64,000 bases of DNA from an uncultured Gammaproteobacteria bacterium (GTDB taxonomy: Bacteria > Patescibacteriota > Patescibacteriia > UBA11705 > DATKZF01), in assembly GCA_964411255.1 (NCBI GenBank), contig CAYPKD010000002.1, positions 162,141 through 226,140 on the forward strand, in the 5' to 3' direction. Below the pieces are notes generated by a model. That model was not told the DNA's origin. It did no database searches and worked only from the letters and a program-made list of their open reading frames with translations. The position numbers and the translations under genes were made by a program. Positions 80-43,176 of this stretch are shown piece after piece. Each line of letters starts with the position of its first letter. Position 1 is the first letter of the stretch.

Positions 80-1357
80 ATGATGAATATCCTTCAAAAA
101 ATACTAGCATTCTTTGCAAGAAGAATACTTAATCGTTACAAGCCAAAGGTAATCGGTATCACTGGCAGTATTGGTAAAACTTCTACTAAAGAAGCAGCTT
201 TTATGGTTTTAAAAGACAAATTTCGAGTGAGAAGAAATGTAAAAAATTATAATAATGAAATTGGCGTTCCAATAACCATTATTGGCACTGAGACCGGAGG
301 TAAATCATTAATAAAATGGTTAAAGGTATTTGTTAAGGCATTAAAACTGTGGCTGATAAAAAATAAAAAATATCCAGAAGTTTTAATTTTAGAAATGGGC
401 GCTGACAAGCCTGGAGATATAAAATATTTGGTTGATATGGTGCCATTAGACATTGGTGTAGTAACCAAGGTCAGTCCGGTTCACATTGAATTTTTTGGCA
501 CCATTGAAGCAATTGCTAAAGAAAAAGGCCAGATAGTGAAAAATTTAAAATCAGATAAAACTGCAATATTAAATTTTGATGATGATAAAGTAAGATCAAT
601 GGAGAATATTACAAAAGCAAAAGTGTTAAGCTATGGCTATTCAGAAGATTGTGAAATGAAAGTGGTTGGAATTGATGTCAAGGTGGAAGAGGAAAAAGTC
701 AGGGGTATGAGCTTTAAGTTATCATATCAAGGCTCAACTATTCCTATGGTTTTGCCAGGAGTCATTGGACGTCATCAGCTATATGCTGCCTTAGGAGGTG
801 CTGCCATTGGTATTGCAATGGGAATGAATATGGTTGATATTGGTCAGGCGTTGAAAAAATATCGGTCACCAAAGGGTAGAATGCGTATTATTGAAGGCTT
901 AGATAATGCTACAGTTATTGATGATAGTTATAATTCATCTCCTGATGCAGCGCACGCAGCAATTCAAGCTGTGAGTAAAATTCCAAGGCGGGGAAGATTG
1001 ATTGCTGCATTTGGAGAAATGCTGGAATTGGGGGAGCTGGCTGTATCTGAACATCAGAAACTTGGTGAAGCAGCAGTTAAGGCAGGTTTTGAAAAAATAT
1101 ATGCAGTGGGTAAACTTGCAAAATATATTCGAAAAGGAGCATCAATGGCTGGTTTAAGTTTGGAAAATATAAAAGTATATGAAAAATCAGAACTGGCTGC
1201 TGAGCAAATAAAAAAAGACCTCAGAGATAGTGATCTTATTTTAGTAAAAGGCTCTCAGGGTCCGCGAATGGAAAAAGTGGCAAAAGCTTTGATGGCTCAT
1301 CCTGAACGGGCTTCGCAGCTTTTGGTCAGGCAGTCAAAGGCGTGGTTGAGGAGATAG
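80..1357 (+). CDS. murF: UDP-N-acetylmuramoyl-tripeptide--D-alanyl-D-alanine ligase (Mur ligase, MurF-like)
   Basis: ORF 26..1357. P-loop GITGSIGKTSTKE and MurF-like motif YNSSPDAAHAAIQAV. In-frame ATG ATG at 80-85 is a more plausible start than 26. The gene may begin in this window. Confidence 0.8.
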   Translation: MMNILQKILAFFARRILNRYKPKVIGITGSIGKTSTKEAAFMVLKDKFRVRRNVKNYNNEIGVPITIIGTETGGKSLIKWLKVFVKALKLWLIKNKKYPEVLILEMGADKPGDIKYLVDMVPLDIGVVTKVSPVHIEFFGTIEAIAKEKGQIVKNLKSDKTAILNFDDDKVRSMENITKAKVLSYGYSEDCEMKVVGIDVKVEEEKVRGMSFKLSYQGSTIPMVLPGVIGRHQLYAALGGAAIGIAMGMNMVDIGQALKKYRSPKGRMRIIEGLDNATVIDDSYNSSPDAAHAAIQAVSKIPRRGRLIAAFGEMLELGELAVSEHQKLGEAAVKAGFEKIYAVGKLAKYIRKGASMAGLSLENIKVYEKSELAAEQIKKDLRDSDLILVKGSQGPRMEKVAKALMAHPERASQLLVRQSKAWLRR

Positions 1358-1390
1358 AAAGGTGAAATCCGAAATCCCCGCTGCTCTGGA

Positions 1391-1417
1391 CGTCATTCCT
1401 GCGAAGGCAGGAATCCG
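1391..1417. repeat. Conserved hairpin repeat copy 1 (CGTCATTCCTGCGAAGGCAGGAATCCG)
   Basis: Perfect 8-bp stem ATTCCTGC/GCAGGAAT with GAAG loop. Lies 35 nt after the murF stop. A second copy at 42761-42787 carries compensatory stem changes. Confidence 0.6.
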
Positions 1418-1481
1418 TTATTAGTATAGTGTAACCCAAATCAGCGGACAAAAATAAAAACTTCTATTTAAAGAAGCTTTT

Positions 1482-2237
1482 TTATTTAATCCCTTTTTTC
1501 CAATACAAACCATCAGGTTTTTGAATGAATTTGTCTTGAAGTTCTTTAGGAATATCTTTCAGATTCTTTGGTATAGGAGAATATGATATTGTTGCCCCCC
1601 TTTCTATAAAAATATCACCATCTATATTAACAATTGACTGAGCAGGTTCTGCTAATAATCTAAAATATTTATCAAGGAAAAAATAAAGTGCACCTGATTT
1701 TCCAATTAAAAAATTGTGTTCTGTGCTAAATAAATTATGAAAACCCTTAGTATCATTTGTTTTATTTGATAGGCTAAATCCAATAATTCTCGGGTCTACT
1801 GTGTTTTTTGCTTTACTAATTCGTACTAAATCACCATTTTTATCAGCTAATGTAATGGATTTTAATGATTCTCTCTTTATGAATTTAGCTTCATCAACCA
1901 TTGAATCAAGTGGTACTTTTAGAGGTTTTCTTTCAAATGCTTTTTTTGCAGCTTTTAATTTTTCTTCTTTGTTCAGTAGCTCCTTACTTGTTTTTCTTCT
2001 ATCCTGGCTCTTTTTCCTTTCCTTTTTCTCTTTTACTTTTAATAGTTCATCTTTATATTGCTGATAATACTCTAAGGCCTTTGCCAATTCACCAGCCTTT
2101 TCCGCAGCCACAGCCTTATCCATAATTTCACCGAGAAATTCCTTTTCTTCTGGAGTTAAGGGAACACGCTTAACCTCACCCCGCCGCGGGCGGGCCATAT
2201 TTAGTTGGGATTCGAGTGATTTGGGTTGTTCTGACAT
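1482..2237 (-). CDS. hypothetical Lys/Glu-rich coiled-coil protein
   Basis: ORF 1482..2297. Start at the internal Met (MSEQPKS) is more plausible because the upstream part is a heptamer-repeat region. No recognisable domain. Confidence 0.5.
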   Translation of the reverse strand: MSEQPKSLESQLNMARPRRGEVKRVPLTPEEKEFLGEIMDKAVAAEKAGELAKALEYYQQYKDELLKVKEKKERKKSQDRRKTSKELLNKEEKLKAAKKAFERKPLKVPLDSMVDEAKFIKRESLKSITLADKNGDLVRISKAKNTVDPRIIGFSLSNKTNDTKGFHNLFSTEHNFLIGKSGALYFFLDKYFRLLAEPAQSIVNIDGDIFIERGATISYSPIPKNLKDIPKELQDKFIQKPDGLYWKKGIK

Positions 2238-3612: not shown

Positions 3613-4653
3613 ATGCCAAAAGGCGAACCAATATTTGAACAACAAAAATTACCTGTTGACGTTTCTTATGAACAATTGGAAGCTCGAATTCCAGAAGTAG
3701 CTAAAATGAAAGGATTTGATCAGCGAAGTGACTTTCATACGCTGACTTTGGATGAGCATACAAAGCAGCTGGGCAGGAATTTGGAAAATAATTTAGACAG
3801 CCTGGAAAAATGGCTGAAAGATCAAAAGAAAAAGGAGGATTTAGAAAAATTAGAACAATACAAAGATTTAATTTTATTAGCTGGCAAATTACATGATTTG
3901 GGTAAAGTATCAGAAGAAGGTATGCAGGTTCATCCAAAAGATCCTGAAAAGCGCCAATATGTAGGTCATGAAAAAGAAAGTGAAAAAATTGTGCGTGAAG
4001 TCGTACCAAAGCATTTTAATCTCAAAGAAGAAGAACTTGATTTAGTGGCAAAATTAGCTGGTTTGCATGCATCAGCATTAAATTTGGTTGGAAATTTTCA
4101 ATCAAATAACCAGCCAAAAGGAAAAGGCTTAAAATCTTATGACCAGTTTTTCAAAAAAGCAGAAGCTTTGCCAATGGATGTGAATATTGAAACAAAGATG
4201 AGAATTGTTTTTGCTTTGAATAAATCAGATAAAGGCGCAGGCTGGAATGAACAAAGTGATCCTGAGGATCCAAAAGTCAAAACTGTTCAGGATAAGGCTG
4301 AAAAACAGATTAAAACGTTAGAAGAAATGGAAAAAGCTTTACCAGCATTGGTAGCTGCTATTGAAGGAAGGAGAGCAGGTGATCAGAAAGCTGGAATAGT
4401 TTTAGAAAAAGGTGAGTATGTTTATAAAGCGCCTGAGAAAAAAGAAAAGAAAAAAGTTGAGATTCCTCCAGGGTTGAAGAAATTAAGTCCGATTTTACGA
4501 GACAAGGTGCCGGCAGTGGCTGAAGTATATCCTACTTTGCAGGCAAAAAAGGGGAATGAACGGGCTTTGCAGGGCATAATAAATGGTTTGTTGAAAAAGA
4601 AGATCGGTTTGACTGATGAACAAATCGAAGCAGTTTTAAAAACACTAGAATAA
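3613..4653 (+). CDS. HD-domain phosphohydrolase-like protein
   Basis: H...HD pattern (LDEHTKQL ... AGKLHDLGK). Lys-rich C-terminus. Confidence 0.5.
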   Translation: MPKGEPIFEQQKLPVDVSYEQLEARIPEVAKMKGFDQRSDFHTLTLDEHTKQLGRNLENNLDSLEKWLKDQKKKEDLEKLEQYKDLILLAGKLHDLGKVSEEGMQVHPKDPEKRQYVGHEKESEKIVREVVPKHFNLKEEELDLVAKLAGLHASALNLVGNFQSNNQPKGKGLKSYDQFFKKAEALPMDVNIETKMRIVFALNKSDKGAGWNEQSDPEDPKVKTVQDKAEKQIKTLEEMEKALPALVAAIEGRRAGDQKAGIVLEKGEYVYKAPEKKEKKKVEIPPGLKKLSPILRDKVPAVAEVYPTLQAKKGNERALQGIINGLLKKKIGLTDEQIEAVLKTLE

Positions 4654-7150: not shown

Positions 7151-8029
7151 ATGAGTGAAGAAAAAGAGCAAAAAGAAGAAAAAACAGATTCAATCTTAGC
7201 GCAGGCTGAAGCTGATAAAAAGAAAAAGCAAAAAAAACAGGTAAAGTCATCCACTTTTGCCTCTACTTTGGTTATCATTATTATAGTAGCTGCCATAATA
7301 ATTGGTGGAGGATATTATCTGCAAAATAAGGCAGCGAATGAAAATAAAGACCAGGCTGTTGATCAGACAAAAGAAGAAATGCAGGCTCAAATTGACGAAT
7401 TAAATAAAAAAATATCCAATTTGGAAGACAAGGACATAACAAACCAGGAATTGATAGAGCGGGATTTGCCAGAAGCAGCCAAAGTGGTGGCAGACTGTTC
7501 TCAAAATTTTATAAATTCATATCCGGAGTTTGACCCAAAAATTCATTTTTATTTAGAATATAATAACCGGGCATATGCCAGTTATTACCGGCAAGGATAT
7601 AGGCTTCGGGATATATGCAAGTCAAATGAGAAATTTTTAATGTTTTTTGATTCAAAAAAAAGTTATGAAGATGCGGTTAGGCTTCAAAAAGCATCACCTG
7701 AAGTTAGGCTTGTTAGCTCAAGAGCGGTGATTGGATTGTCAGATAAAATGTTTTTTCAAATGAATTATTACCCTGTAAAGATTGAAAATTATAATTTTGA
7801 GCAGGGTAAAGAATCTGCATGTGTTTTTGACCAGTTTTTAAATGATAAAGTCTTATACATTTGCATAAATGTTTTAGAGCAGGGCAATGAATATATTTGG
7901 TATTCATATGATTCAGTAAAAAAATTAAATCAGAAAGTGCGGATTGAATCACCAAATCCTGAAATTGAAAATGAAACATTTGAGCCAGAGCTTTTAACTT
8001 TATTTTCAAAACAAGCTTTTTCTAATTAA
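7151..8029 (+). CDS. hypothetical membrane-anchored coiled-coil protein
   Basis: Lys-rich N-terminus, TM segment TLVIIIIVAAIIIGGG, then a coiled-coil stretch. Confidence 0.5.
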   Translation: MSEEKEQKEEKTDSILAQAEADKKKKQKKQVKSSTFASTLVIIIIVAAIIIGGGYYLQNKAANENKDQAVDQTKEEMQAQIDELNKKISNLEDKDITNQELIERDLPEAAKVVADCSQNFINSYPEFDPKIHFYLEYNNRAYASYYRQGYRLRDICKSNEKFLMFFDSKKSYEDAVRLQKASPEVRLVSSRAVIGLSDKMFFQMNYYPVKIENYNFEQGKESACVFDQFLNDKVLYICINVLEQGNEYIWYSYDSVKKLNQKVRIESPNPEIENETFEPELLTLFSKQAFSN

Positions 8030-8112
8030 ACATAATCATGTGTGGACAAGACGCTGTCAAAAGTGTTTTTTTTGTTTTAAAATATAAGATATGCAAAATA
8101 AGGAGGGGTATA

Positions 8113-8775
8113 ATGCCAATAATAGCTACTTATCATGTTGATGAGATGGAATTTGGGCAAAGAGTCAGATTAATAAAAACAAGTAATTCAATATTTGTTG
8201 AACCTGATGATAATGGCGATTATGAAATCGCTGGTGTATTTCCTGATGAGCGTCAGGTATTTGTTAATAAAATAATGGACGACGCGATTAATTTTGAAGA
8301 ATGGGATGAAAGAGAAACAACTATTCGTGACTTTGATTGGCAGGACGCTGGGCCGACCCGGCATGATATTACAGAAGATGGTTCAAATGAAGAACGCCTG
8401 CAGGCATTAGCTGATGAAGATCCTGGTTTTGAAGATGATCACGAAGTCAGTGGCCTTCATATGATTAAAGCATACTCATTAGATTTTTTACCAAATGAGA
8501 CAAGGGTGCGATTAAGGCTGCTAAAAGGATATAAATTAGCTGTAAAAGATCCTAATGGTGAGTATGTCGTAACAGCGTCTGTTAAAAAAAAGATTAGAGG
8601 CGCAGATGGATATGAAATTGTAGTCACTCCAGAAGCTGAGCATCAGCGGGCATTTGAGCGGAAGATAGGAGAGCGGTATGTCACTGGCAGAAGAAGCGGA
8701 ATATGCGGGCCGAGCAGAGTGGATTTTGTATCGCCAGAACAATTGGCAGAATTTAGGAAAAAAAGGGAAAAGTAA
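8113..8775 (+). CDS. tandem-paralog family protein 1 (unknown function; internal duplicated ~60-aa module with D-x-NGEY-VV)
   Basis: RBS AAGGAGGGG 8 nt upstream of ATG at 8113. Paralogous to 8893, 9861 and 10712. Motifs HDITEDGSNEER and DPNGEYVVTA. Confidence 0.65.
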   Translation: MPIIATYHVDEMEFGQRVRLIKTSNSIFVEPDDNGDYEIAGVFPDERQVFVNKIMDDAINFEEWDERETTIRDFDWQDAGPTRHDITEDGSNEERLQALADEDPGFEDDHEVSGLHMIKAYSLDFLPNETRVRLRLLKGYKLAVKDPNGEYVVTASVKKKIRGADGYEIVVTPEAEHQRAFERKIGERYVTGRRSGICGPSRVDFVSPEQLAEFRKKREK

Positions 8776-8790
8776 TTTTTTCAAACAAAA

Positions 8791-8814
8791 ACCTTCAGCA
8801 TCTGAAGGTTTTTT
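8791..8814 (+). terminator. conserved terminator cassette copy 1 (CAAACAAAAACCTTCAGCAtcTGAAGGTTTTTT)
   Basis: Hairpin CCTTCAG/CTGAAGG plus T-run. A near-identical cassette follows each of the four paralogs. Confidence 0.7.
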
Positions 8815-8835
8815 AAATTGTGTATAAAAAGGTTA

Positions 8836-9561: not shown

Positions 9562-9593
9562 TGCAAAACAGAAATAAAATTCAAACAAAAACA

Positions 9594-9620
9594 AAAACCT
9601 TCAGCACTTGGAGGTTTTTT
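9594..9620 (+). terminator. conserved terminator cassette copy 2
   Basis: ATTCAAACAAAAACAAAAACCTTCAGCACTTGGAGGTTTTTT. Confidence 0.65.
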
Positions 9621-9860
9621 AAAAAGCAAAAATCAAAAAGCTTGCCCTGAGCTATGTCGAAGGGTAAAAACTGTGGAGTCGCTTGGCGACCTTTTTTTAT
9701 TCAAACAGCTAAACCCCTAACCCAAACTCAAATTTGCTACAAGTTACATGATATAAGTCGTATGATAAACTGTTGACGAAATGTGGAATAAATTCGCTTA
9801 TTCAATTTATTATTTTATTGTATAATTAAAATTAGGAAATAAAAAAAGGAGAGGGCAGAG

Positions 9861-10502: not shown

Positions 10503-10530
10503 AACAAAAACACAAATTCAAACAAAAACA

Positions 10531-10558
10531 AAAAATCTTCAGCAACTGGAGATTTTTT
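10531..10558 (+). terminator. conserved terminator cassette copy 3
   Basis: ATTCAAACAAAAACAAAAAATCTTCAGCAACTGGAGATTTTTTT. Confidence 0.65.
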
Positions 10559-10711
10559 TAATAGATTAAAGATCTCCGCCAAAGGCGGACGATTTTTTTT
10601 ATTATGTATTATATGGTACAAGCTATGAGCTCTCGTGTATCGTTTGGTTATCAAAATAATTTTTTTATTGTATAATATAAGAGTTGAAAACAAAAAAATA
10701 GGAGGGAGATC

Positions 10712-11260
10712 ATGCTAACAAAATTAAGATTTTGTAATGCAAAATTACAAATAGGCGTAGGAGATAAGGTAATAGACAGAGAGGGCTTAGCATTTCCTGT
10801 TTTGTCTGATTCGACTGAAGATAGCTTAGATGTATTAGAGGTTGTTGAAGTAAATCAAGAAAAACTGGAAGTTTTGACAAGGCCATTTACAAATTTAAAT
10901 GAAGATGCATGGGCTGAAATTTCTGGATCATATGAGATAAAAACAGATCCGGGAAATAATATTACAAAAGATCCAGCGATAGAGACAAAAGGTCATGAAG
11001 AATTTGAAGTATTGATGGCTGTAATTGATGGTGAAGTAAATGTAATCCAAGGTGATCCAGTAAGAATTGTCGGTTATCGAGCACAAGCCGGAATTGTTGA
11101 TGTGGTGCCACATCCTGAAGGAGAGTATGTTATTATTGAAATTATTGCTGAGATGTCTGTACCGCGAAAAGGCTTGTGGGTGCAAATTGAACCAGATTAT
11201 GATGATGACAATGATAATGATTTTGCAGAAAAAGTAAAAGTCAAAATTTATAATGCATGA
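10712..11260 (+). CDS. tandem-paralog family protein 4 (diverged)
   Basis: Upstream TTGTATAAT and RBS AGGAGGGAGA. Motifs NNITKDPAIETKGHEE and PEGEYVIIE. Confidence 0.6.
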   Translation: MLTKLRFCNAKLQIGVGDKVIDREGLAFPVLSDSTEDSLDVLEVVEVNQEKLEVLTRPFTNLNEDAWAEISGSYEIKTDPGNNITKDPAIETKGHEEFEVLMAVIDGEVNVIQGDPVRIVGYRAQAGIVDVVPHPEGEYVIIEIIAEMSVPRKGLWVQIEPDYDDDNDNDFAEKVKVKIYNA

Positions 11261-11280
11261 AAATTCAAACAAAAACAAAA

Positions 11281-11306
11281 ACCTTCAGCACTGGAGGTTT
11301 TTTTAA
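11281..11306 (+). terminator. conserved terminator cassette copy 4
   Basis: ATTCAAACAAAAACAAAAACCTTCAGCACTGGAGGTTTTTTT. Confidence 0.65.
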
Positions 11307-11417
11307 AATCAAAAAGCAAAAAGCAAAAAGTAAAAAAAATAAAAAATTTGGAGTTTTTATTTGATTTTTTTTATAAAAAGAGATAATATGTCAATAATTA
11401 AGAAATAAGGGAATTTT

Positions 11418-12012: not shown

Positions 12013-12478
12013 AAGCGAGATAAGCAAGACGAGCAAGAAAGCGAGACAAGTAATCCTTTAATATGGAAAATAAAAAAGAAATAAAAAGTTTTAAAGATAT
12101 TATTGTTTGGCAAAAAGCTCATCAATTGGTTCTGGAAATATATAAGATAACCAAGAATTTCCCAAGCGAAGAGCGATTTTGTTTGGTCAGTCAGATGAGA
12201 AGAGCGGTCATATCAGTAACTGCTAATATTGTTGAAGGTTTTGCCAGGAAAAAGATTTTAGAAAGTTTAAATTTTTATAATATTTCAAATGCTTCTTTAG
12301 AGGAATTAAAATATTTTATATTAATTTGTTATGATATTAATCTAATAACTAAAAATACTTATAGCAAACTATTTGAAATGAGCAAAGAGACAGGAAGGAC
12401 TTTACATGGTTGGATACAAAGTCAAAAAGTTAATGCCAACTTGTCTTGCTCGTTTCACTAGTCTTGCTTGTCTCGCTT
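12013..12478 (+). mobile_element. inverted-repeat-flanked cassette carrying a four-helix-bundle gene (MITE-like, putative)
   Basis: Left inverted repeat AAGCGAGATAAGCAAGACGAGCAAGAAAGCGAGACAAGT at 12013-12051. Right inverted repeat ACTTGTCTTGCTCGTTTCACTAGTCTTGCTTGTCTCGCTT at 12439-12478, which encodes the last 7 codons and the stop. The same repeat family recurs at 13307-13327 and as an apparently empty pair at 34994-35083. Confidence 0.35.
12063..12461 (+). CDS. four-helix-bundle protein (TIGR02436-like; 23S rRNA intervening-sequence protein family)
   Basis: WQKAHQLVLEIYKITKNFPSEERFCLVSQMRRAVISVTANIVEGFAR is typical of the family. Confidence 0.7.
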   Translation: MENKKEIKSFKDIIVWQKAHQLVLEIYKITKNFPSEERFCLVSQMRRAVISVTANIVEGFARKKILESLNFYNISNASLEELKYFILICYDINLITKNTYSKLFEMSKETGRTLHGWIQSQKVNANLSCSFH

Positions 12479-20000: not shown

Positions 20001-20438
20001 ATGACAAAATACATTTATGAGAATTTAACGTATGATTTGATTGGTATATTTTATGAAGTTTATAATTGCTTGGGTCATGGTTATAAAGAAAGAACATATT
20101 GTAATGCAATCATGAAACTTTTACGGAAAAATAATTTGGATTTTGCATATCAATTTAAAGTGCCGGTAAAGATAAGAGATGAAATAGTATGTAAAAGGTA
20201 TTTAGACTTTTTAATAGATGATAAAGTGATAGTTGAGATTAAAGTAGGTAATAAAAGCTCAGGAAGAGATTTTAAGCAAATAAAAGAATATTTAAATTTA
20301 TCTGGATATAAACTTGGACTTTTAGTATTATTTCGAGATAAAGATGTTAAAATATATCGTATTGCCAATTTATACAAAACTGAGATCCGTATCATCTGTA
20401 GCAGATCTGTGGATCTCGTAGTAACATTATGCAAGTAG
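20001..20438 (+). CDS. GxxExxY protein (PD-(D/E)xK-like, TIGR04256-type small cassette protein)
   Basis: GYKERTY (G-x-x-E-x-x-Y) and DFLIDDKVIVEIK. Hairpin-rich flanks. Inserted between hydrogenase genes. Confidence 0.55.
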   Translation: MTKYIYENLTYDLIGIFYEVYNCLGHGYKERTYCNAIMKLLRKNNLDFAYQFKVPVKIRDEIVCKRYLDFLIDDKVIVEIKVGNKSSGRDFKQIKEYLNLSGYKLGLLVLFRDKDVKIYRIANLYKTEIRIICSRSVDLVVTLCK

Positions 20439-27996: not shown

Positions 27997-29541
27997 ATGT
28001 CCACTAAGAAAAATTTACCATTAATACTTTTAATCCTTGACGGCTGGGGCATTGCTCCCAAAAATAAAGGCAATGCAATAGAATTGGCTAAAAAGCCAAA
28101 TTTTGATTTTTTATTAAAAAAATATTCACATACCAGCTTATTTGCTCATGGCAGGCATGTGGGATTACCAGAAAATCAGGTAGGAAATTCAGAAGCAGGG
28201 CATTTAAATATTGGCGCTGGGCGTGTAGTAAAGCAGGATTCTGTTATTATATCAAAAGCGATTAAGGATGGGACATTTTATAAAAATACTGCTATCTTAG
28301 AACTGATAAAGCATGTAAATAAAAATAAATCAGATTTGCATCTGATGGGCTTAATATCACTTCATAATAGCCCTCACATGAGTTTGGAGCATTTATATGC
28401 TTTAACAAAAATGGCATGTAAACAATGTAAAAATATATATTTGCATCTTTTTACTGACGGACGTGACTCACCGCAATTTGCTGCTGCAGATATTTTAAGA
28501 CAGGTTCAGAAAAAATTACCTGAAAAAGTAAAAATTGTTTCTTTGGTTGGAAGATTTTATGCTATGGATAGAAATAAAAGATGGCAGAGAACCCAAACAG
28601 CTTATGAGCTTTTAATCAGCGGCAAAGGAGAAGTGTTCGAAGATTTTGATAAAGCAGTTTTGCATTCATATAACAAAGAATTAACCGATGAATTTTTGGA
28701 GCCGAGCTTAATTGTACCAAAAGGGAAAAAGCCTGTTTTAATAAAGGACAATGACGGTATTGTGTTTTTTAATTTACGATCTGACCGGGCCAGGCAATTA
28801 ACAAAATGTTTTGTCCAAAAAGATTTTAATAAAATAAATCCAAAGTCATTTAAGAGAAAAAAGAAATTAAAAAATTTAGCTTTTGTCGCATTGACTGATT
28901 TTGGCCCTGATTTAAATAATATTTTAACCGCCTATCCGAGCGTAACAGAAAAAAATACGATGCCAATTCTTTTACAGAATTTAAGGCAGGTGTATATTTC
29001 AGAAACCGAGAAGTATGCCCATGTGACATACTTTATCAATGGCGGTTCTGACAAGCCGGTTAATGGAGAAGATAGAATAAATATAGCTTCTCCTAATGTA
29101 AGAAGCTATGATTTAAAGCCTGAAATGAGTGCTTATAAGATCACTGATAAAATACTGGATTTATTATCAAAGAAAAGCTATGATTATTATGTGGTAAATT
29201 TAGCTAACCCAGATATGGTCGGTCATACAGGCAATCTTGAAGCTGGGATAAAGGCGATTGAGGCTACTGATAAATGTATTGGAGCAATTTATAAAAAGTT
29301 TTTAGCAGCTAAAGGCACTTGTATTATCACAGCTGATCATGGTAATGCAGAAAAAATGCTTGATTTAAAGACTGGTGAAAAATTTACTGAACACACAGTA
29401 AATAAAGTACCGTTTATTTTTGTTAATAGTAAAAATGTTAAATTGCGGTCTAATGGGCGTTTATCTCATATAATGTCAACAGTGCTTGATGTGATAAATC
29501 AAAAAAATCATAAAATTAGATCAAAGTCATTAATAAACTAG
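27997..29541 (+). CDS. gpmI: 2,3-bisphosphoglycerate-independent phosphoglycerate mutase (copy 1)
   Basis: LILDGWGIA and GNSEAGHLNIGAGR. 514 aa. Confidence 0.8.
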   Translation: MSTKKNLPLILLILDGWGIAPKNKGNAIELAKKPNFDFLLKKYSHTSLFAHGRHVGLPENQVGNSEAGHLNIGAGRVVKQDSVIISKAIKDGTFYKNTAILELIKHVNKNKSDLHLMGLISLHNSPHMSLEHLYALTKMACKQCKNIYLHLFTDGRDSPQFAAADILRQVQKKLPEKVKIVSLVGRFYAMDRNKRWQRTQTAYELLISGKGEVFEDFDKAVLHSYNKELTDEFLEPSLIVPKGKKPVLIKDNDGIVFFNLRSDRARQLTKCFVQKDFNKINPKSFKRKKKLKNLAFVALTDFGPDLNNILTAYPSVTEKNTMPILLQNLRQVYISETEKYAHVTYFINGGSDKPVNGEDRINIASPNVRSYDLKPEMSAYKITDKILDLLSKKSYDYYVVNLANPDMVGHTGNLEAGIKAIEATDKCIGAIYKKFLAAKGTCIITADHGNAEKMLDLKTGEKFTEHTVNKVPFIFVNSKNVKLRSNGRLSHIMSTVLDVINQKNHKIRSKSLIN

Positions 29542-29543
29542 TT

Positions 29544-31130
29544 ATGGCTCAACAAGTACCAAAACCTTTAACCCTTATTGTTTTAGACGGCTGGGGAGTG
29601 GCTCCTCCATCTGATGGCAATGCCATTTCATTGGCTAACACTCCAAATATTGACCGGTTTATCGCTAATTATCCGGCAATGACAATTTTAACTTCAGGTG
29701 AATCTGTTGGATTATCTGAAAATGAACCGGGTAATTCAGAGGTTGGACATCTAACAATGGGTATAGGCAGGGTTTTCTATCAAAATTTGCCCAGAGTGAA
29801 CCGTGCAATAAAGAACGGAGATTTTTTTAATAATCAGGCTTTTTTTAAAGCGGTAAATCATGTAAAAGTGAACAAATCTAAACTGCATTTGATAGGGATT
29901 TTAAGCGATGGAAATATTCAAGGGTCAATAGATCATTTATACGCCTTGCTTGAATTGGCCAGACAACAAAAGGTAAGCGAGGTATACATTCATGTTATTT
30001 TGGACGGACTTGACTCTTTAGAAAGTGGTGGAAAAGATTTTATAAATGATTTGGAAAAAAAGATTCATGAAACAGGAGTTGGTGAAATCGCATCAATATC
30101 AGGCAGATTTTTTGCATTAGATAGAGACGGTCATTGGGACAGAACCCAAAAAGCTTTTTATGCAATTGTACACGGACAGGCAGATGAATTTTATGATAAT
30201 CCGGCTGAAGCGATTGAATCTTCTTATAAAAAACAGATTTTTGATCAGGGGTTTCGGCCAGTTGTTATTACCAAAGGCGGTAAGCCAAAAACTACAGTTA
30301 CTGAAAAAGACGCTATAATTTTTTATAATATAAAAGGCGACCGTGCCAGTCAGCTTACAAAATCCTTTGTGCTGGATGAATTTTTAAAATTTGAAAGAGG
30401 ACCTAAAATTGCAAATTTGGTTTTTGTCACTATGACTCAATATGAAAAAGATTTACCAGTGGATGTTGCTTTCCCAAAGCAAATTGTTAAGACTTCATTA
30501 ACAAAAGCAATTAGCGATAACGGCCTTAAGCAGCTTTACATCGCTGAAACTGAAAAATATGCCCATGTTACTTTTTTCTTAAGTGGTAATACTGAGGAGC
30601 CGTTTATTGGCGAGGATAGAGTGGTAATACCGTCTCCTCAGATTGATTCTTATGTGCAAAAGCCAGAAATGAGCGCATTGGAAATTAGTAAACGGCTTGA
30701 AAAGGAAATTCTAAGGGAAGTATATGATTTTATTGTGTGCAATTTAGCCAATGCTGACATGCTTGGCCATACAGGGGATATTGAAGCGACGAAAAAGGCT
30801 ATTGAAACAGTGGATAAAGTAATTGGCACTATTGTGAATTTGGTTTTATCAAAGGATGGTGCGGTAGTATTGGTCGGTGACCATGGTAATGCTGAGGAAA
30901 TGAGAGATTTACAAACAGGAGAAATAAATAAAGAGCATACAAAAAATCCAGTTCCCTTTATAATTATTGGCAAAGAGTGGGAAGGAAAAAACATAGGAGT
31001 ATCTGAAAGCATTGGAAATGACTTAAGCTTGATAAAACCGGTTGGAATTTTAGCAGATGTAGCGCCAACAATATTGAAAATTTTAAATTTACCCGTTCCA
31101 GAGGAAATGACAGGTAAATCATTGATTTAA
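29544..31130 (+). CDS. 2,3-bisphosphoglycerate-independent phosphoglycerate mutase paralog (copy 2)
   Basis: LIVLDGWGVAP and GNSEVGHLTMGIGR. 528 aa. A tandem paralog of the preceding gene. Confidence 0.75.
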   Translation: MAQQVPKPLTLIVLDGWGVAPPSDGNAISLANTPNIDRFIANYPAMTILTSGESVGLSENEPGNSEVGHLTMGIGRVFYQNLPRVNRAIKNGDFFNNQAFFKAVNHVKVNKSKLHLIGILSDGNIQGSIDHLYALLELARQQKVSEVYIHVILDGLDSLESGGKDFINDLEKKIHETGVGEIASISGRFFALDRDGHWDRTQKAFYAIVHGQADEFYDNPAEAIESSYKKQIFDQGFRPVVITKGGKPKTTVTEKDAIIFYNIKGDRASQLTKSFVLDEFLKFERGPKIANLVFVTMTQYEKDLPVDVAFPKQIVKTSLTKAISDNGLKQLYIAETEKYAHVTFFLSGNTEEPFIGEDRVVIPSPQIDSYVQKPEMSALEISKRLEKEILREVYDFIVCNLANADMLGHTGDIEATKKAIETVDKVIGTIVNLVLSKDGAVVLVGDHGNAEEMRDLQTGEINKEHTKNPVPFIIIGKEWEGKNIGVSESIGNDLSLIKPVGILADVAPTILKILNLPVPEEMTGKSLI

Positions 31131-32560: not shown

Positions 32561-33370
32561 ATGTATTTGATTTCATTAATACTAGGTATTATACAAGGTA
32601 TAACTGAGTTTTTACCAATTTCAAGCTCTGGGCACTTAATCGTGTTCAGAGAAATTTTGAATTTTGAAATTTCCGATAGTTTAAGTTTTGATATTGCAGT
32701 TCATTTTGGAACATTGCTGGCGGTTATTGTTTTCTTTTATAAGGACGTAGTTCGACTTATTAAAGCCTGGTTTACTAGTTTTACAAATTTGAAAAAGATG
32801 AATTCTGACCAAAAAGTTGCTTGGCAGGTAATTTTAGGAACAATCCCGGCAGCAATTATCGGTGCCTTGTTCAGTGAATGGATTGATAATTATATTAGAA
32901 ATACGCTTGTAGTTATTATAACATTAATTGCTGGTGGAATTCTATTTTTGATTATAGAAAGATTTTATAAAGCAAAACTGGACATGAAAGATTTGAATTG
33001 GAAAACCGCATTTACCATTGGTATTGCTCAGGCAATTGCTTTGATCCCAGGAGTATCAAGATCAGGTATTACCATTATAACAGGAATGGGATTTAAATTA
33101 CATAGGACAGAAGCGGCACGGTTTAGTTTTCTTTTAGGCATACCAGCTATTCTGGGCGCTACAGTTTGGGGAGTTATAAAATTGGATTATTCTGTGATGG
33201 AAAATAGCGACTGGATTATATTCGCAATTGGAATAATAAGTTCAGCTATAGTAGGATTTTTTGCAATTAAATTTTTATTTGCTATACTGAAAAAATATAG
33301 TATGAGGCCATTTGCCTATTATAGGTTTGTATTGGCAATTGTTTTAATAATTTATTTATTTTTGAAATAA
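32561..33370 (+). CDS. uppP: undecaprenyl-diphosphatase
   Basis: GITEFLPISSSGHL N-terminal motif. 269-aa polytopic protein. Confidence 0.85.
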   Translation: MYLISLILGIIQGITEFLPISSSGHLIVFREILNFEISDSLSFDIAVHFGTLLAVIVFFYKDVVRLIKAWFTSFTNLKKMNSDQKVAWQVILGTIPAAIIGALFSEWIDNYIRNTLVVIITLIAGGILFLIIERFYKAKLDMKDLNWKTAFTIGIAQAIALIPGVSRSGITIITGMGFKLHRTEAARFSFLLGIPAILGATVWGVIKLDYSVMENSDWIIFAIGIISSAIVGFFAIKFLFAILKKYSMRPFAYYRFVLAIVLIIYLFLK

Positions 33371-33396
33371 AAAATCCCAGAATATTATCCTGAGAA

Positions 33397-33834
33397 TTAT
33401 GTGGATTTTACTGAAAACTGTGGAAGACTAGAGAGCTTTTGAATAATCCATTTACCAATACGGTATAGCACGATGCCAACTATGAACGGGGAGTGAATCA
33501 CAAATTTCCATGTATTTGCTAGAATCTTGATTGGCCAAAAGAGGATCAATAGTACTGAGTAAGTACCTCTATTTAATGATTCAACGGGGGGTGAGGGAAC
33601 ATCCTCATCATATTCGTGGCAAATATATTTTCCTTCTTTATGATTCATGTAATGGCCCGGGAAGAGAAAATATCCATACCAAACAGGTTTTAGTAATATT
33701 TCATAGCAGTCTTTTTCTACTTTTGAGCCATGCCATACTTTGATACTATATTTGAGAAGAAATCGGCCAATTTGATAATATACTGTTGCAGCACCAATAA
33801 TTACAAGTATGATTTCAATGAAAGATCTTTCCAC
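33397..33834 (-). CDS. tandem-paralog membrane protein C (diverged)
   Basis: Related to 33938..34360 and 34465..34923 (IGYL/IGRFL ... WH ... WP(I/M)K(I/V)L). Confidence 0.5.
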   Translation of the reverse strand: MERSFIEIILVIIGAATVYYQIGRFLLKYSIKVWHGSKVEKDCYEILLKPVWYGYFLFPGHYMNHKEGKYICHEYDEDVPSPPVESLNRGTYSVLLILFWPIKILANTWKFVIHSPFIVGIVLYRIGKWIIQKLSSLPQFSVKST

Positions 33835-33919
33835 TTTTGCCTCCTTGCTGGGGGTGGGGGAAGAAACATTTCAATATATTACTTAAAAAAATAATTTTTG
33901 TCAAGAAATAAAAAATCCC

Positions 33920-33945
33920 TGGTTTTGAACCAAGGGATTATGCAG
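33920..33945 (-). terminator. terminator module AATCCCTGGTTTTGAACCAAGGGATT (copy 1)
   Basis: Palindromic hairpin. The minus strand is followed by TTTTTATTTCTTGACAAAAATT. An identical module lies at 34441-34466. Confidence 0.6.
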
Positions 33946-34360
33946 AGTTTATTCTGAAGATTTTTCTTATCGGCAGAGTAAAAAGCTTTCCAATTTGAAT
34001 TATCAATAAAGCAACACCGTAAATGATAGCTATGGGAAGGCCAATACCTATCAGACCAGATGTATTAAACAATACCTTTATTGGCCACGAAAGCATCATC
34101 GCTCGTTTGTATTGTCTTTCATTCATTAGATCTATTGGCACACCAGGAGCAATAGCAATTGAGAATGATATTGGAAATATTAGATAAACATACCAATATT
34201 TTGTAATTTTGCGTTTATAATCAGAGTTGTTAATATTCTTATTGCTGATGACATTATGCCAGGTTTTCCAGCTGATATGCGCAAACAGGTAGCCTATATT
34301 GCAATAAATGAAAAGACTTATAAATATTACCAATACCCAAGTCATAGTTGATAGTTCCAT
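33938..34360 (-). CDS. tandem-paralog membrane protein B
   Basis: About 60% identical to 34465..34923 (CNIGYLFAHISWKTWHN). Confidence 0.55.
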   Translation of the reverse strand: MELSTMTWVLVIFISLFIYCNIGYLFAHISWKTWHNVISNKNINNSDYKRKITKYWYVYLIFPISFSIAIAPGVPIDLMNERQYKRAMMLSWPIKVLFNTSGLIGIGLPIAIIYGVALLIIQIGKLFTLPIRKIFRINSA

Positions 34361-34440
34361 TTATAACCCCCTAATTGTTGTTGTGAAAGGACTAATTATT
34401 ATACTTTACAGGTAATACGAATTTTTGTCAAGAAATAAAA

Positions 34441-34466
34441 AATCCCTGGTTTTGAACCAAGGGATT
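34441..34466 (-). terminator. terminator module AATCCCTGGTTTTGAACCAAGGGATT (copy 2)
   Basis: Identical to copy 1. Overlaps the stop of 34465..34923. Confidence 0.6.
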
Positions 34467-34923
34467 ATACTGAATTAATTTTGAATAATTTCTTTACAGG
34501 TAGAGTGAAAAGTTTTCCGATTTGGATTGCGAGTAACCCAATGACATAGCCAATAGCTATAGGAATTCCTAATAACCATATTATAGTCCCAATATTTTGA
34601 CAAATGATTATTGTTAATGAAAGAATATTATATATTATTTTCATTGGCCACAAGAACATCATCATTCGCTTGTATTGTTTTTCTTTCATTCCATCTATTG
34701 GCACTTCTTCACCACCGCATTCATAGAATGACATAGGGAATATCAGATAAGCATACCAATATTTCGTGATTTTGCGCTTATTATTAAAGTAGTTAATCTT
34801 CTTGTTGAGGATGATATTGTGCCAGGTTTTCCAGCTAATATGAGCGAGTAGATAGCCAATGTTGCAATAAACAAATACGATGCATATAATTATTAATGTC
34901 CAAGCACTTGCAGATATTTCCAT
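34465..34923 (-). CDS. tandem-paralog membrane protein A
   Basis: CNIGYLLAHISWKTWHN. 3-4 TM segments. Confidence 0.55.
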   Translation of the reverse strand: MEISASAWTLIIICIVFVYCNIGYLLAHISWKTWHNIILNKKINYFNNKRKITKYWYAYLIFPMSFYECGGEEVPIDGMKEKQYKRMMMFLWPMKIIYNILSLTIIICQNIGTIIWLLGIPIAIGYVIGLLAIQIGKLFTLPVKKLFKINSV

Positions 34924-37621: not shown

Positions 37622-39808
37622 ATGTACCTTGACACCAAGGAGGGTCAGATGACAAAAGACACCCAAAAAGTAGAAGAAATTATGCCTGGCTGCAAAGTTA
37701 TTCATACTTCAGCAGGCGAAATTATGGTGGGCTGTCCATCTGAAATTTTAAAGGTTTTTGCCAGACAAAACAGGCAAGTGCCTCAAGCAATTGTATTGCC
37801 AACTCATTTTTTTAGTTATGGAATTGTTCAGGCAGCACTTGAATTTGTGCTGTATAATTTTCTGTTTATTCAGGGAAGATTTTTCAAAGGTGAGAAGCTG
37901 ACTGTTTTTGGAACTGAAAAGCAAATTAATAGAATGACTGGACTTTTGCATCTGACTTTGAATGGGCCAAGTCGGTCAACGATGGAGAACTGGGGAATCC
38001 CTAAAGATCAAATTGATTTAGTAGAAAAGTTTTCAGATCATTTTCGTCTTAAGGATAAAAGCGGAAAGCCCTTGGCAATTTGCGAATTGATTAATTTTAG
38101 GAAGTTTAAATATGGTCATCCAGAGCTTCGGTTTGAACGGATTAATATTTCTATCAAAGATCAAAATGTTTTTAAGTTTGAGGATCAGTATACGGAAACT
38201 TTTGTTGATATAAATATTAAGGAAGCTCAAAGGCCGCAGATTCCTATCCCTGTACCACGCGAATTGCCTCCGCGAGCAGTGCTTGGAGCAACAGCTTTGA
38301 GTAAATGCACAACAGGTTTTGACCATACAGGATATACTTCTGGAGTTATTCTTTGGATCAATGGTATGGGTGTTTCTGTGGATGGCGTAGCCTGGATGAA
38401 AGAGCATTTGAGAAGCTTTGGCATAAATACAACTGAAATAAAAGCGCATATTGTCACTCATATACATGATGACCATAGCAATATTTTTGATTTAATTGTT
38501 AACGGAAAAGTTTTTAACCTGATTTCAGATAAATTGGGTTATCATTGTTTGGTTTCAAAAGCAGCTCTTCTCCTGGATATGCCCGAAGAGGAAATTAAGA
38601 AAATGATCCAGTTAATTGAGGTTATACCTGGCCAGCCGCTTCATTGGCATGGCGCAACTTTTGAATTTTGGCCAGTTGCTCATCCGATTCCAACAATGGG
38701 ATTTAGGGTAACGGTAGCTGGAAAATCAATCGTTTATTCAGCTGATACGATTTGGGGATCAAAGCTGAATAAATTATTCGATTCAGGCGTGATACCAAAG
38801 GATGTTTGTGAAAGAATTCAGGATGTGCCAATGCTGGGTTCAGAGCTGACATTCCATGACGCTGGCGGCGGAATGATTCACCCTGATTTGAAAGAATTGG
38901 CAGACCTGCCAGAACAGATTAGGCGCCACATCGTTCCAACACATATGGAACAAGTGCCTGACGAGCTGAGAGATAAGTTTGATCCGATCGAACCTGGTCA
39001 AAGCTGGGAATTGATCGGTCAAAGGACTTGGGATGTTAGTGATTTCATGAGAGTTTCACATGCGCCAATTCTTTCCAGTATTAGCGAAGAATGGATGCAT
39101 GTTGTGATTTCTCAGGGAAGAACCAAAGAGTATCCTGCCAACTATACTTTGCTTCAGGAAGGCAAGTTCGGTAAAAGCTTTTACCTTTTAATCGGCGGAA
39201 CTGTCAAAGTGTTATATAATAACGAGCGTGTGGCAACTCTCTCCACTGGAGATTTCTTTGGCGAAATTTCTTTAATGTACGATATTCCATGTACAGCTTC
39301 GATTGTGACAAAAAGTCCGATCAAAGTGCTTGAGCTGCCACAGGATATTTTTATGGAAATGGTTTCCTGTACGGGCTTGATGAAAAAGCTGGAGAAAATT
39401 CATCAGATTCGTCCTGTCCTGATTCAGTTGGCAACAATCAAGGATCTGCCTGCTCCGGTTCAGAATAGGCTTGTTGAAGCGACAAATCTTACACAGGTTA
39501 AAGCTGGTGAGGTGATTATCAAGCAGGGAGATGCTGGAGATCGGTTTTACGGAATCGTTTCTGGCAAAGCAGATGTTTTTTCCCAGGCTGATCCAAAATC
39601 ACCAAAGCGGCACATTGCTACATTGTATAGAAATCAGTGCTTTGGAGAAATGGCGCTGATAGGTAATGGAGTAAGAACAGCAGATGTTGTCGCTCAAACC
39701 GACATGGAACTGTTTTCCTTAACCAAAGAAGATTTTGTCAGAATTATTGGGCAGACTCCAATGTTCTTTTACGCAATAGGTATTTTGGCTCAAAGTAGAG
39801 CCAGATAA
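37622..39808 (+). CDS. metallo-beta-lactamase-fold protein fused to two cyclic-nucleotide-binding (CAP_ED) domains
   Basis: MBL motif HIVTHIHDDH (HxHxDH). Two cNMP-binding signatures FGEISLMYDIPCTASIVT and FGEMALIGNGVRTADVVA. N-terminal ~250 aa of unknown function. Confidence 0.65.
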   Translation: MYLDTKEGQMTKDTQKVEEIMPGCKVIHTSAGEIMVGCPSEILKVFARQNRQVPQAIVLPTHFFSYGIVQAALEFVLYNFLFIQGRFFKGEKLTVFGTEKQINRMTGLLHLTLNGPSRSTMENWGIPKDQIDLVEKFSDHFRLKDKSGKPLAICELINFRKFKYGHPELRFERINISIKDQNVFKFEDQYTETFVDINIKEAQRPQIPIPVPRELPPRAVLGATALSKCTTGFDHTGYTSGVILWINGMGVSVDGVAWMKEHLRSFGINTTEIKAHIVTHIHDDHSNIFDLIVNGKVFNLISDKLGYHCLVSKAALLLDMPEEEIKKMIQLIEVIPGQPLHWHGATFEFWPVAHPIPTMGFRVTVAGKSIVYSADTIWGSKLNKLFDSGVIPKDVCERIQDVPMLGSELTFHDAGGGMIHPDLKELADLPEQIRRHIVPTHMEQVPDELRDKFDPIEPGQSWELIGQRTWDVSDFMRVSHAPILSSISEEWMHVVISQGRTKEYPANYTLLQEGKFGKSFYLLIGGTVKVLYNNERVATLSTGDFFGEISLMYDIPCTASIVTKSPIKVLELPQDIFMEMVSCTGLMKKLEKIHQIRPVLIQLATIKDLPAPVQNRLVEATNLTQVKAGEVIIKQGDAGDRFYGIVSGKADVFSQADPKSPKRHIATLYRNQCFGEMALIGNGVRTADVVAQTDMELFSLTKEDFVRIIGQTPMFFYAIGILAQSRAR

Positions 39809-42111: not shown

Positions 42112-42690
42112 ATGTTAAACAAAACTTTTTGGAATAAAATTAAAAAGGAACACGCAGAGTATGCCAGTGGCCGCTCAAATATAATCCATCATTCAAACAT
42201 TGCTTTAAGTAGTGCAAAAAAAGCAATATTTGCTTTGCATCGGGATAATGTAAAAGAGGCGGCGGCAAAGCTCAATGAGAGTAAAAAAGAATTAACAGAT
42301 TTAGAAAAGAAATTTGGGAAAAATTCAAGGTTTAGGTGTGAAGGCTCATGGAAGGCTGCAGCTGAAGAATTTGTTGAGGCAGCGCTTTATTTTGAATATA
42401 GAAAAACCGGCAAAGTAGGGGAGATTAAAGGAGTAAGCCTGCAGTTTGATGGGTACATCGGCGGTCTGTCTGATTTTTCTGGAGAACTGGTTCGCTGGGC
42501 TGTGCTTTTAGTAAACAAAGGTGATTATTCGAAAATGTTTGAAATTCAAAAAACAATAAATGAAGTTATCCAGATTTTGCTAGACACAAATTTAACTGGA
42601 CCTTTGCGACAAAAATTTGATCATGCAAAAAGAAATCAGCAGCGGATTGAACAGATGATATATGATCTTAAAATCAGGAAACTTATTTAG
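42112..42690 (+). CDS. translin-family protein (bacterial homolog)
   Basis: C-terminal half GELVRWAVLLVNKGDYSKMFEIQKTINEVIQILLDTNLTG...IYDLKIRK aligns by eye with eukaryotic translin GELSRLAVNSVTAGDYSRPLHISTFINELDSGFRLLNL...VYDLSIRG. Confidence 0.5.
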   Translation: MLNKTFWNKIKKEHAEYASGRSNIIHHSNIALSSAKKAIFALHRDNVKEAAAKLNESKKELTDLEKKFGKNSRFRCEGSWKAAAEEFVEAALYFEYRKTGKVGEIKGVSLQFDGYIGGLSDFSGELVRWAVLLVNKGDYSKMFEIQKTINEVIQILLDTNLTGPLRQKFDHAKRNQQRIEQMIYDLKIRKLI

Positions 42691-42760
42691 AGGGCATAAT
42701 AAGAGGCATCAGATGTGATGGAAGGGCTGGAAACTGGTATAACTCTACCACTGTCCTGTC

Positions 42761-42787
42761 CGTCATTCCCGCGGAGGCGGGAATCCA
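42761..42787. repeat. Conserved hairpin repeat copy 2 (CGTCATTCCCGCGGAGGCGGGAATCCA)
   Basis: Stem ATTCCCGC/GCGGGAAT. Relative to copy 1 both arms have changed (T to C and A to G) in a compensatory way. The flanks CTGYYCTG..CGTCATTCC and GGAATCCRYTTA are also conserved. Confidence 0.6.
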
Positions 42788-42801
42788 CTTAGTAGTCCTG
42801 A

Positions 42802-43176
42802 ATGAATAAAAGCAGTGATTATGACTTTATGAAACACTCCAACCGAGATGATTTTGAAAAAATACACGCAGAGCAGGCTCAGCCTGTTCAGGTAAAACAA
42901 AAAACCAGCATAGTATCAAGGCTAAAAGCTGGCTGTTGTTTGGTTTTAATTGCCGGACTAATCGCTGGCGGATTTTATTTATATAAATTTTATCAGGATG
43001 TAAAAGCCCAGATTGATATTGAAATAAATGAGAATAAGGAGCTTTATGATGAGACAAAGGATACGATTGACAAGGCAAATGAAAATTATAATGATATAAA
43101 TTCAGCAATTGATCATGGTAAGGATTTGATTGATGATGCAAAAGAAATTAAAGATAATATTGATGATTTAAAATAA
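42802..43176 (+). CDS. hypothetical membrane-anchored coiled-coil protein
   Basis: TM segment CCLVLIAGLIAGGFYL followed by a coiled-coil stretch. Confidence 0.45.
   Translation: MNKSSDYDFMKHSNRDDFEKIHAEQAQPVQVKQKTSIVSRLKAGCCLVLIAGLIAGGFYLYKFYQDVKAQIDIEINENKELYDETKDTIDKANENYNDINSAIDHGKDLIDDAKEIKDNIDDLK

Follow-up and report, generated by a model that had tools for sequence, protein, structure and literature searches.

A short hairpin-forming sequence follows the murF gene of a Patescibacteria genome and occurs a second time 41 kb further on, and the question that this locus raises is what kind of element it is and in which molecular form its fold would be recognized. The window, that is the whole stretch of DNA analysed, comprises 64,000 nucleotides of contig CAYPKD010000002.1. 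The two sites are read here, with a probability of about 0.62, as solitary copies of the NTS/dRS3-type hairpin repeat, an “Ssn-related motif” (SRM) whose functional form would be a single-stranded DNA (ssDNA) hairpin for an Ssn-type nuclease. The object is a member of an already described repeat family, found in an undescribed host group, and not a new RNA motif.

Two hairpin copies and their setting

The core of copy 1 lies at 1391..1416 on the plus strand and is composed of CGTC, the arm ATTCCTGC (1395-1402), a GAAG loop (1403-1406), the arm GCAGGAAT (1407-1414) and CC. Copy 2, at 42761..42786 on the same strand, is built in the same order from CGTC, ATTCCCGC (42765-42772), a GGAG loop (42773-42776), GCGGGAAT (42777-42784) and CC. 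Both copies possess a stem of 8 bp and a loop of 4 nt, summarized as ATTCCYGC / GRAG / GCRGGAAT, with DNA fold energies of -9.6 kcal/mol for copy 1 and -8.9 kcal/mol for copy 2 (z-scores of -3.9 and -2.7, correspondingly), and the stem is also stable when the two copies are folded as RNA. The loops differ by one base, GAAG in copy 1 and GGAG in copy 2, and the stems by one compensated pair, T1400·A1409 in copy 1 as against C42770·G42779 in copy 2, which agrees with the compensatory stem change pointed out in the initial annotation.

Copy 1 is placed in the 3' untranslated region of murF (80..1357, plus strand), which encodes UDP-MurNAc-pentapeptide synthetase with Mur_ligase_M and Mur_ligase_C domains (gene call of 425 aa), and starts 34 nt after the stop codon of this gene (1357). 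Copy 2 begins 71 nt past the stop (42690) of a translin-family gene (PF01997; 42112..42690, plus strand) and occupies the spacer between this gene and a co-directional one at 42802..43176 (plus strand), for which the assembly gene call gives 115 aa and the match to DUF948 is weak. The copies are same-strand singlets, and the earlier description of two copies, 41 kb apart, each soon after a plus-strand stop, is correct on all these points. The sequence of copy 2 is identical across three independent assemblies from the same population, and the DNA of the window recurs in several metagenome assemblies, one of the matching contigs being an ENA contig of 164 kb. GC makes up about 34% of the window, and the GC skew stays positive along it. 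Among its proteins, which resemble those of Patescibacteria most, MurF has homologs in a “Patescibacteria group bacterium” (70% identity) and in Candidatus Falkowbacteria (about 54%). The translin-family protein (PF01997) encoded at 42112-42690 (+) of this bacterial (Patescibacteria) genome has homologs 79–94% identical in related metagenome contigs.

The pattern CGTCATTCC-Y-GCG-R-AGGC-R-GGAATCC has two exact matches in the window, one per copy (1391-1416 and 42761-42786, plus strand), with zero matches expected by chance. A search of the window with CGTCATTCCYGCGRAGGCRGGAATCC allowing up to three mismatches returned only these two sites, and none of 100 shuffles of the window contained any match. 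A looser pattern with three mismatches allowed gave no further credible copy in the window, and a generic scan of the window for GTCA followed by a hairpin gave no additional element. Elsewhere in the window, tandem repeats of about 530–560 bp that are 76–82% identical span three small minus-strand ORFs (33364-34871), and two adjacent full-length genes for cofactor-independent phosphoglycerate mutase (27997-29541 and 29544-31130) are about 70% identical over the reported repeat segments.

The flanks are much less alike than the cores. The GC-rich 5' flank of copy 1 (CCCGCTGCTCTGGA, 1377..1390, plus strand) bears a weak similarity to that of copy 2 (ACCACTGTCCTGTC, 42747..42760, plus strand), which is also GC-rich and forms part of a segment absent from the empty site of the relative L246 described below; in a fixed register 8 of the 14 positions are identical (p about 0.005–0.02). 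The 3' flanks, GTTATTAGTAT (1417..1427, plus strand) and ACTTAGTAGTCC (42787..42798, plus strand), weakly resemble each other after a 1-nt shift, with 7/10 positions identical (p about 0.007, two offsets having been tried). Local alignment of the flanks against shuffled sequences was not significant, and the CCCCGCTGC part of the 5' flank of copy 1 is also found in the sister genome L247, beside a different hairpin. Across the family, conservation outside the core is limited to Y at -1 and AG at +26/+27. When IMG/VR was scanned with the core extended by the 5' flank found in the window, and again with the core extended by the 3' flank, both scans gave 0 matches, so that the flanks are not usable as a family signature. 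The earlier statement that both flanks are conserved is thus weakly true of the two copies, marginally so in the fixed register, but fails in local alignment and, family-wide, beyond -1 and +26/+27.

No T-run follows the stem in either copy, the sequences that come after it being CCGTTATTAG and CCACTTAGTA, and terminator scans reported nothing at copy 1 or copy 2. A separate structure, made of an A-tract, a CTTCT-ATTTAA-AGAAG hairpin and a T-tract, is present at about 1456..1483 and is terminator-like on both strands (z = -3.2 on the plus strand and -3.6 on the minus strand). It is positioned 40 nt after copy 1, between the convergent murF and ORF 1482-2237, is conserved in the sister genome and looks like the real bidirectional terminator between these two genes. 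The initial annotation was therefore right that the repeat is not a simple terminator. Rho-independent terminators and REP-like 3' hairpins that stabilise mRNA share with the repeat a stable GC-rich stem-loop soon after a stop codon; unlike them, the repeat has no U-tract, copy 1 is followed by a terminator-like hairpin of its own, and the sequence is conserved across phyla beyond the stem. In another part of the window, four units of about 63 nt (8770-8832, 9576-9638, 10514-10576 and 11260-11322), each consisting of an A-rich run, a CCTTCAGCA…TGGAGG hairpin and a T-run, follow a row of small ORFs without Pfam match, one unit after each, and resemble the repeated terminators of a tandem gene array.

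Identity and covariation of the repeat family

The dRS3 repeat has been known for more than two decades; in pathogenic Neisseria it is part of NIME arrays, is an integration target of a phage recombinase and is present in hundreds of copies. It is contained, as ATTCCC-N8-GGGAAT, in the Neisseria Transformation Sequence (NTS), which has the 28-nt consensus CGTCATTCCCGCGMAVGCGGGAATCYRG (Chenal et al., Nat Commun 2025; PMC11893778). Copy 2 conforms exactly to the dRS3 definition (ATTCCC GCGGAGGC GGGAAT), while copy 1 (ATTCCT…AGGAAT) is off by one compensated pair. In comparison with the NTS consensus, copy 2 has two mismatches, a loop base G where M is required and a final base C where G is required, and copy 1 has three, of which the compensated T·A pair accounts for two and a final T for the third. 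Both copies read CGTC-ATTCC…GGAAT-CC and retain the GTC and the C that follows the palindrome. Mutagenesis singled out these positions as critical for SsnA: the three bases before the palindrome (GTC) govern cleavage and the C right after it governs binding (PMC11893778).

Neither of the published search strings recovers the copies. The rule used for NTS permits at most one mismatch (PMC11893778), and neither copy passes it. The expression for SRMs, HGTCWYN(0-2)YYVSBRHN(0-5)WNVSBRGN(0-2)RNCYNB, was built by hand from 29 genomes (PMC11893778); a scan of the window with it gave 0 matches and missed both copies, on the analyst's reading at one position each, a stem T of copy 1 where V is required and a loop G of copy 2 where H is required. 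A semi-palindrome that folds into a hairpin on one strand, which is characteristic of SRMs, is found in both copies. The T·A and G-loop variants of the window are also found in other genomes, alongside canonical copies, and T·A variants with C or G as the loop base occur in several Dehalococcoidia genomes. Since activity of the Neisseria meningitidis enzyme was abolished when the palindrome was altered with the hairpin kept (PMC11893778), copy 1, with its T·A variant, may not be a substrate for every Ssn.

The likeness to NTS and SRMs comprises the same 26-nt core, the 8-bp hairpin, the oriented ends (GTC and the post-palindrome C), the intergenic location and the spread over many phyla. The differences are that the host is a member of the Patescibacteria with 34% GC, that only two copies and no ssn gene were found within 74 kb, and that both copies fall just outside the search strings of the paper (two to three mismatches to NTS, one position off the SRM expression). 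Patescibacteria are not mentioned in the Ssn paper (PMC11893778). In contrast to dRS3 in Neisseria, the host of the window is not a Neisseria, and neither RS/NIME arrays, nor hundreds of copies, nor a filamentous prophage or recombinase are found nearby. A relation to tRNA or tmRNA was considered and rejected, the only such gene found in the window being that of a tRNA-Glu (about 2484-2559).

With its three variable positions left free, the 26-mer is found in more than 120 IMG/VR stretches, and together with CTGNN upstream at more than 120 genome loci. The titles of the matches listed name Pseudomonadota, Chloroflexota, Planctomycetota, Nitrospirota, Cyanobacteria, Ignavibacteriae, Fibrobacteria and Acidimicrobiales, and also Neisseria and Candidatus Roizmanbacteria, the latter belonging, like the window's host, to the candidate phyla radiation (CPR). 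The lowest GC content of the fetched loci is 39%, as compared with about 34% in the window. In the Candidatus Roizmanbacteria metagenome-assembled genome, a stretch of about 800 bp (L220, 6690-7520) contains three GTCA…hairpin…ATCC elements, of which one is a canonical NTS and two have other stems or loops, so that this trio is a cluster of the family in another CPR genome.

Of 345 occurrences among the matches listed, about 98% have a Watson-Crick pair at the stem position left free, where each of the four pair types is represented. For a wider view of the stem, 26-mers within six substitutions of the consensus were collected from the fetched loci, a selection that is blind to whether changes are complementary. 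Double changes in this collection keep a Watson-Crick pair in 128 cases, give G·T in 2 and break the pair in 4. In the 147 distinct variants, 95 cells are changed on both sides of a pair, as against 15.7±3.5 in shuffles, a value that none of the 500 shuffles reached. The covariation score of 0.276 compares with 0.105 in shuffles and at most 0.095 in slid controls. Six of the eight stem pairs covary, and at one stem position the variants comprise 98 C·G, 20 G·C, 9 A·U and 8 U·A. The two CC/GG pairs never covary in the 147 variants, in keeping with the paper's remark that shape alone does not suffice for recognition and that sequence is needed too (PMC11893778).

The hairpin is thus under selection for pairing, family-wide. 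A covariation check, as suggested in the initial annotation but made by counting pair changes in the 147 family variants, came out well above all controls. The same annotation had taken the compensated pair of the window as a sign of selection on a folded RNA or a dyad protein site. The selection on pairing is borne out (95 cells vs 15.7±3.5); of the possible substrates, ssDNA is better supported than these two (PMC11893778).

Presumed nuclease partner and alternative explanations

SsnA of N. meningitidis is a GIY-YIG protein of 94 aa, which binds NTS and cuts a few nucleotides upstream of it, on ssDNA only; RNA, duplex DNA and the reverse strand were not substrates in vitro (PMC11893778). Binding and cutting restricted to ssDNA have been published for the Neisseria and Wolbachia enzymes, and SRMs flank ssn homologs in many phyla (PMC11893778). 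The same association is seen in the loci collected here. An Ssn-like ORF (E from 1e-21 to 1e-65) adjoins the repeat in 11 of the first 243 fetched loci, mostly bracketed by inverted copies, as in L041, where a repeat at 7785 (+) and one at 8140 (-) enclose a gene at 7823-8134. The GIY-YIG domain of these ORFs was confirmed by Pfam.

The window itself gave no such gene. With every HMMER filter switched off, a profile of Ssn homologs matched nothing in the six-frame translation of the window, where the best E-values were 1.4 and 1.5, and nothing in the adjoining 10 kb on its left side. Pfam searches of essentially all ORFs of the window, together with the precomputed annotation of 32-53 kb, contained no GIY-YIG and no Y1 transposase domain. 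The 74 kb formed by the window and the 10 kb to its left hold two copies of the repeat. In a protein search with an Ssn homolog, no label of Patescibacteria appeared among the best 120 of 7,731 matches. The window also contains two other genes: a small PD-(D/E)XK nuclease gene (PDDEXK_3, E = 1e-24) at 20001-20438 (+), among oxidoreductase and hydrogenase genes, and a gene at 37622-39808 (+) for a protein of 728 aa with Anti-Pycsar Apyc1-like and cyclic-nucleotide-binding domains (precomputed Pfam matches of the corresponding assembly gene).

By analogy with the characterised systems, the top strand would fold into the 8-bp hairpin when it becomes single-stranded, for example in replication, transformation or repair. 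In those systems a GIY-YIG nuclease of about 95 aa (Ssn) binds the hairpin and nicks a few nucleotides upstream, as determined by the GTC and the C that border the palindrome on its 5' and 3' sides, respectively. In the window the cut would be expected a few nucleotides upstream of CGTC, which for copy 1 would place it within the 5' flank at 1377..1390. In the characterised systems, moreover, the repeat and the nuclease gene move jointly as NTS-ssn-NTS units, and the repeats become scattered in intergenic DNA in the manner of miniature mobile elements. The two copies of the window would accordingly be intergenic insertions behind murF and the translin-like gene, and a cognate Ssn acting on them would be encoded elsewhere in the genome, or else the copies may be orphans or relics.

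REP-associated tyrosine transposases (RAYTs), which are related to IS200/IS605, offer a different partner, under which the copies would be singlets of REP/REPIN-type elements mobilised by a RAYT that recognizes the ssDNA hairpin. The resemblance is close, because both kinds of elements are short GC-rich intergenic hairpins read as ssDNA, and the Neisseria REP/REPIN sequence of Bertels and Rainey, the 21-mer ATTCCCGCGCAGGCGGGAATC linked to the Group 2 RAYT NMAA_0235, is the same sequence as the NTS, from which the Neisseria REPIN is built. Inverted doublets 55–85 bp apart, which are REPIN-like, also occur in many fetched loci (L013, L028, L036, L047). However, the copies of the window are singlets in the same orientation and 41 kb apart, and not the inverted doublets closer than about 130 bp by which REPINs are recognized; no RAYT gene and no Y1 transposase domain are found among the window's ORFs, and a search of the fetched loci for GIY-YIG genes found such genes beside the repeat. 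A RAYT-mobilised origin is for these reasons regarded as unlikely.

The remaining readings concern the molecule in which the hairpin acts. The hairpin might work in RNA transcribed from the murF 3' end and from the translin–DUF948 spacer, as a stabiliser against 3' exonucleases, a processing site or a regulatory stem-loop. REP hairpins of E. coli can stabilise the mRNA upstream of them and provide a precedent. Both copies are sense-oriented just past a plus-strand gene and upstream of any terminator, the stem is stable as RNA, and the relatives keep some GC-rich palindrome after the murF stop in spite of the change of its sequence, so that a hairpin is perhaps needed there. Against this, the shared orientation of two copies would arise by accident in one case in four, one relative lacks the element at the translin site (L246), and the unpaired CGTC and CC(AG) ends of the 26-nt sequence, needless for a generic stabilising stem, are kept across phyla. 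Stem mismatches among the distinct variants, compared as a possible sign of which strand folds, number 24 of the G·T kind vs 49 of the A·C kind, which shows no sense-strand wobble preference, G·U not being favoured over A·C. Rfam has no match at either site: in the window only the tRNA-Glu (2484-2556) is above the gathering threshold, and the chance-level matches near copy 1 include none centred on the hairpin. SsnA, moreover, does not bind the RNA form (PMC11893778). An RNA role is not needed to explain the data and appears improbable. A duplex-DNA palindrome serving as the operator of a dimeric regulator would account for the perfect 8-bp dyad symmetry, and symmetric changes of half-sites would also preserve the dyad. 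All four Watson-Crick combinations at one stem position fit pairing and not base-specific readout, the conserved ends are non-palindromic and make the element directional, both sites are downstream of genes and not at promoters, and the duplex form is not bound by SsnA (PMC11893778), which leaves very little room for this reading. The chance that two 26-mers merely resemble each other is negligible, given that no shuffle of 100 had a match and that the sequence recurs in hundreds of unrelated contigs. The duplex-DNA operator and the chance match are both effectively excluded.

Occupancy of the two sites in related genomes

Read as solitary NTS/dRS3-type repeats, the copies can be followed at their sites in related genomes. 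A metagenome scan for relatives of the translin-like gene gave three loci, two of them informative. In L244, whose translin-like protein is 94% identical, the element occupies the same site and differs by two substitutions. In L246, with 80% identity, the element is absent after the translin gene and only a short spacer is present, with two N bases near the site.

At the murF site, the sister genome (L247-L250, 94% identical) keeps the upstream flank of the site (…GAAATCCCCGCTGC) and the downstream terminator-like hairpin. In the place of copy 1, at 4583-4620 of L247 (orthologous to 1385-1420 of the window), it has GTCA-TCTCGA-GTGAAGCGTCGCGGAA-TCGAGA-GATC, with the stem TCTCGA/TCGAGA and a 16-nt loop. 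This type of hairpin is a separate repeat, present in four IMG/VR contigs (L255-L258). The proposal that the loop GTGAAGCGTCGCGGAA is a collapsed NTS remnant was rejected, since the 15-nt loop of another copy, made of CGNAG pentamers, explains the long loop more simply. Within the same flanks, the murF site is thus occupied by the NTS type in the window and by the ATCTCGAG type in a 94%-identical sister, and in relatives at 70% identity the murF stop is followed by GC-rich palindromes that are different again. The elements vary between near relatives far more than point mutation would allow, which fits insertion, loss or replacement.

Other differences between these genomes were observed as well. 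Immediately past the murF stop region, at 4517-4546, L247 contains about 30 nt of additional GC-rich sequence (CGAGAGTTTGCCCCGAGCCTGTCGAGGGGG) that is absent from the window, and further on an extra 7-nt TCGAAAT unit without counterpart in the window. Three small genes for a “23S rRNA-intervening sequence protein” (four-helix bundle) are found at 12063-12461 (+) and 52854-53249 (+) of the window and at 9531-9920 of L259; one precedes lexA, one is inside the ATP synthase operon between the genes of the c and b subunits, and the third, between a PBP gene and murF, lies just left of the window. The third is absent from the 94%-identical L247, and for this reason it looks like a gene that comes and goes. 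In the segment 12486-14985, lexA is followed by a small ORF and a Y-family polymerase gene (IMS/IMS_C), and the same pair is found in a relative at 70% (L253).

One possible reading of the murF site, though a doubtful one, is that in these very small Patescibacteria genomes the GTCA…ATC hairpins are orphans which sit at fixed “landing sites” downstream of genes, where one hairpin can take the place of another. If true, this would mean site-directed replacement or homing of hairpin cassettes, maybe without a resident Ssn, or alternatively that the hairpins have been co-opted as RNA structures of 3' ends. To our knowledge, no such replacement or homing mechanism has been described for the NTS/dRS3 repeat family. 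The swap of the hairpin type at this one site (murF) is the only mildly surprising feature of the locus.

Taken alone, the finding matters little, since the repeat family was already published in 2025. It is modestly useful in that NTS-type hairpins are now recorded from Patescibacteria, in the window and in the Candidatus Roizmanbacteria contig, a group that the Ssn paper does not mention, and it provides an independent check, from public data, of two claims of that paper, the selection for pairing and the adjoining of the repeat to GIY-YIG genes (PMC11893778). Genomes with proteins 80–94% identical differ, at corresponding sites, in whether the element is present and in the type of hairpin, and evidence of this kind is needed to decide if and how such repeats move. 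If the source genome is truly without Ssn, the copies would be orphans, and would bear on whether the repeat spreads by horizontal transfer independently of its nuclease.
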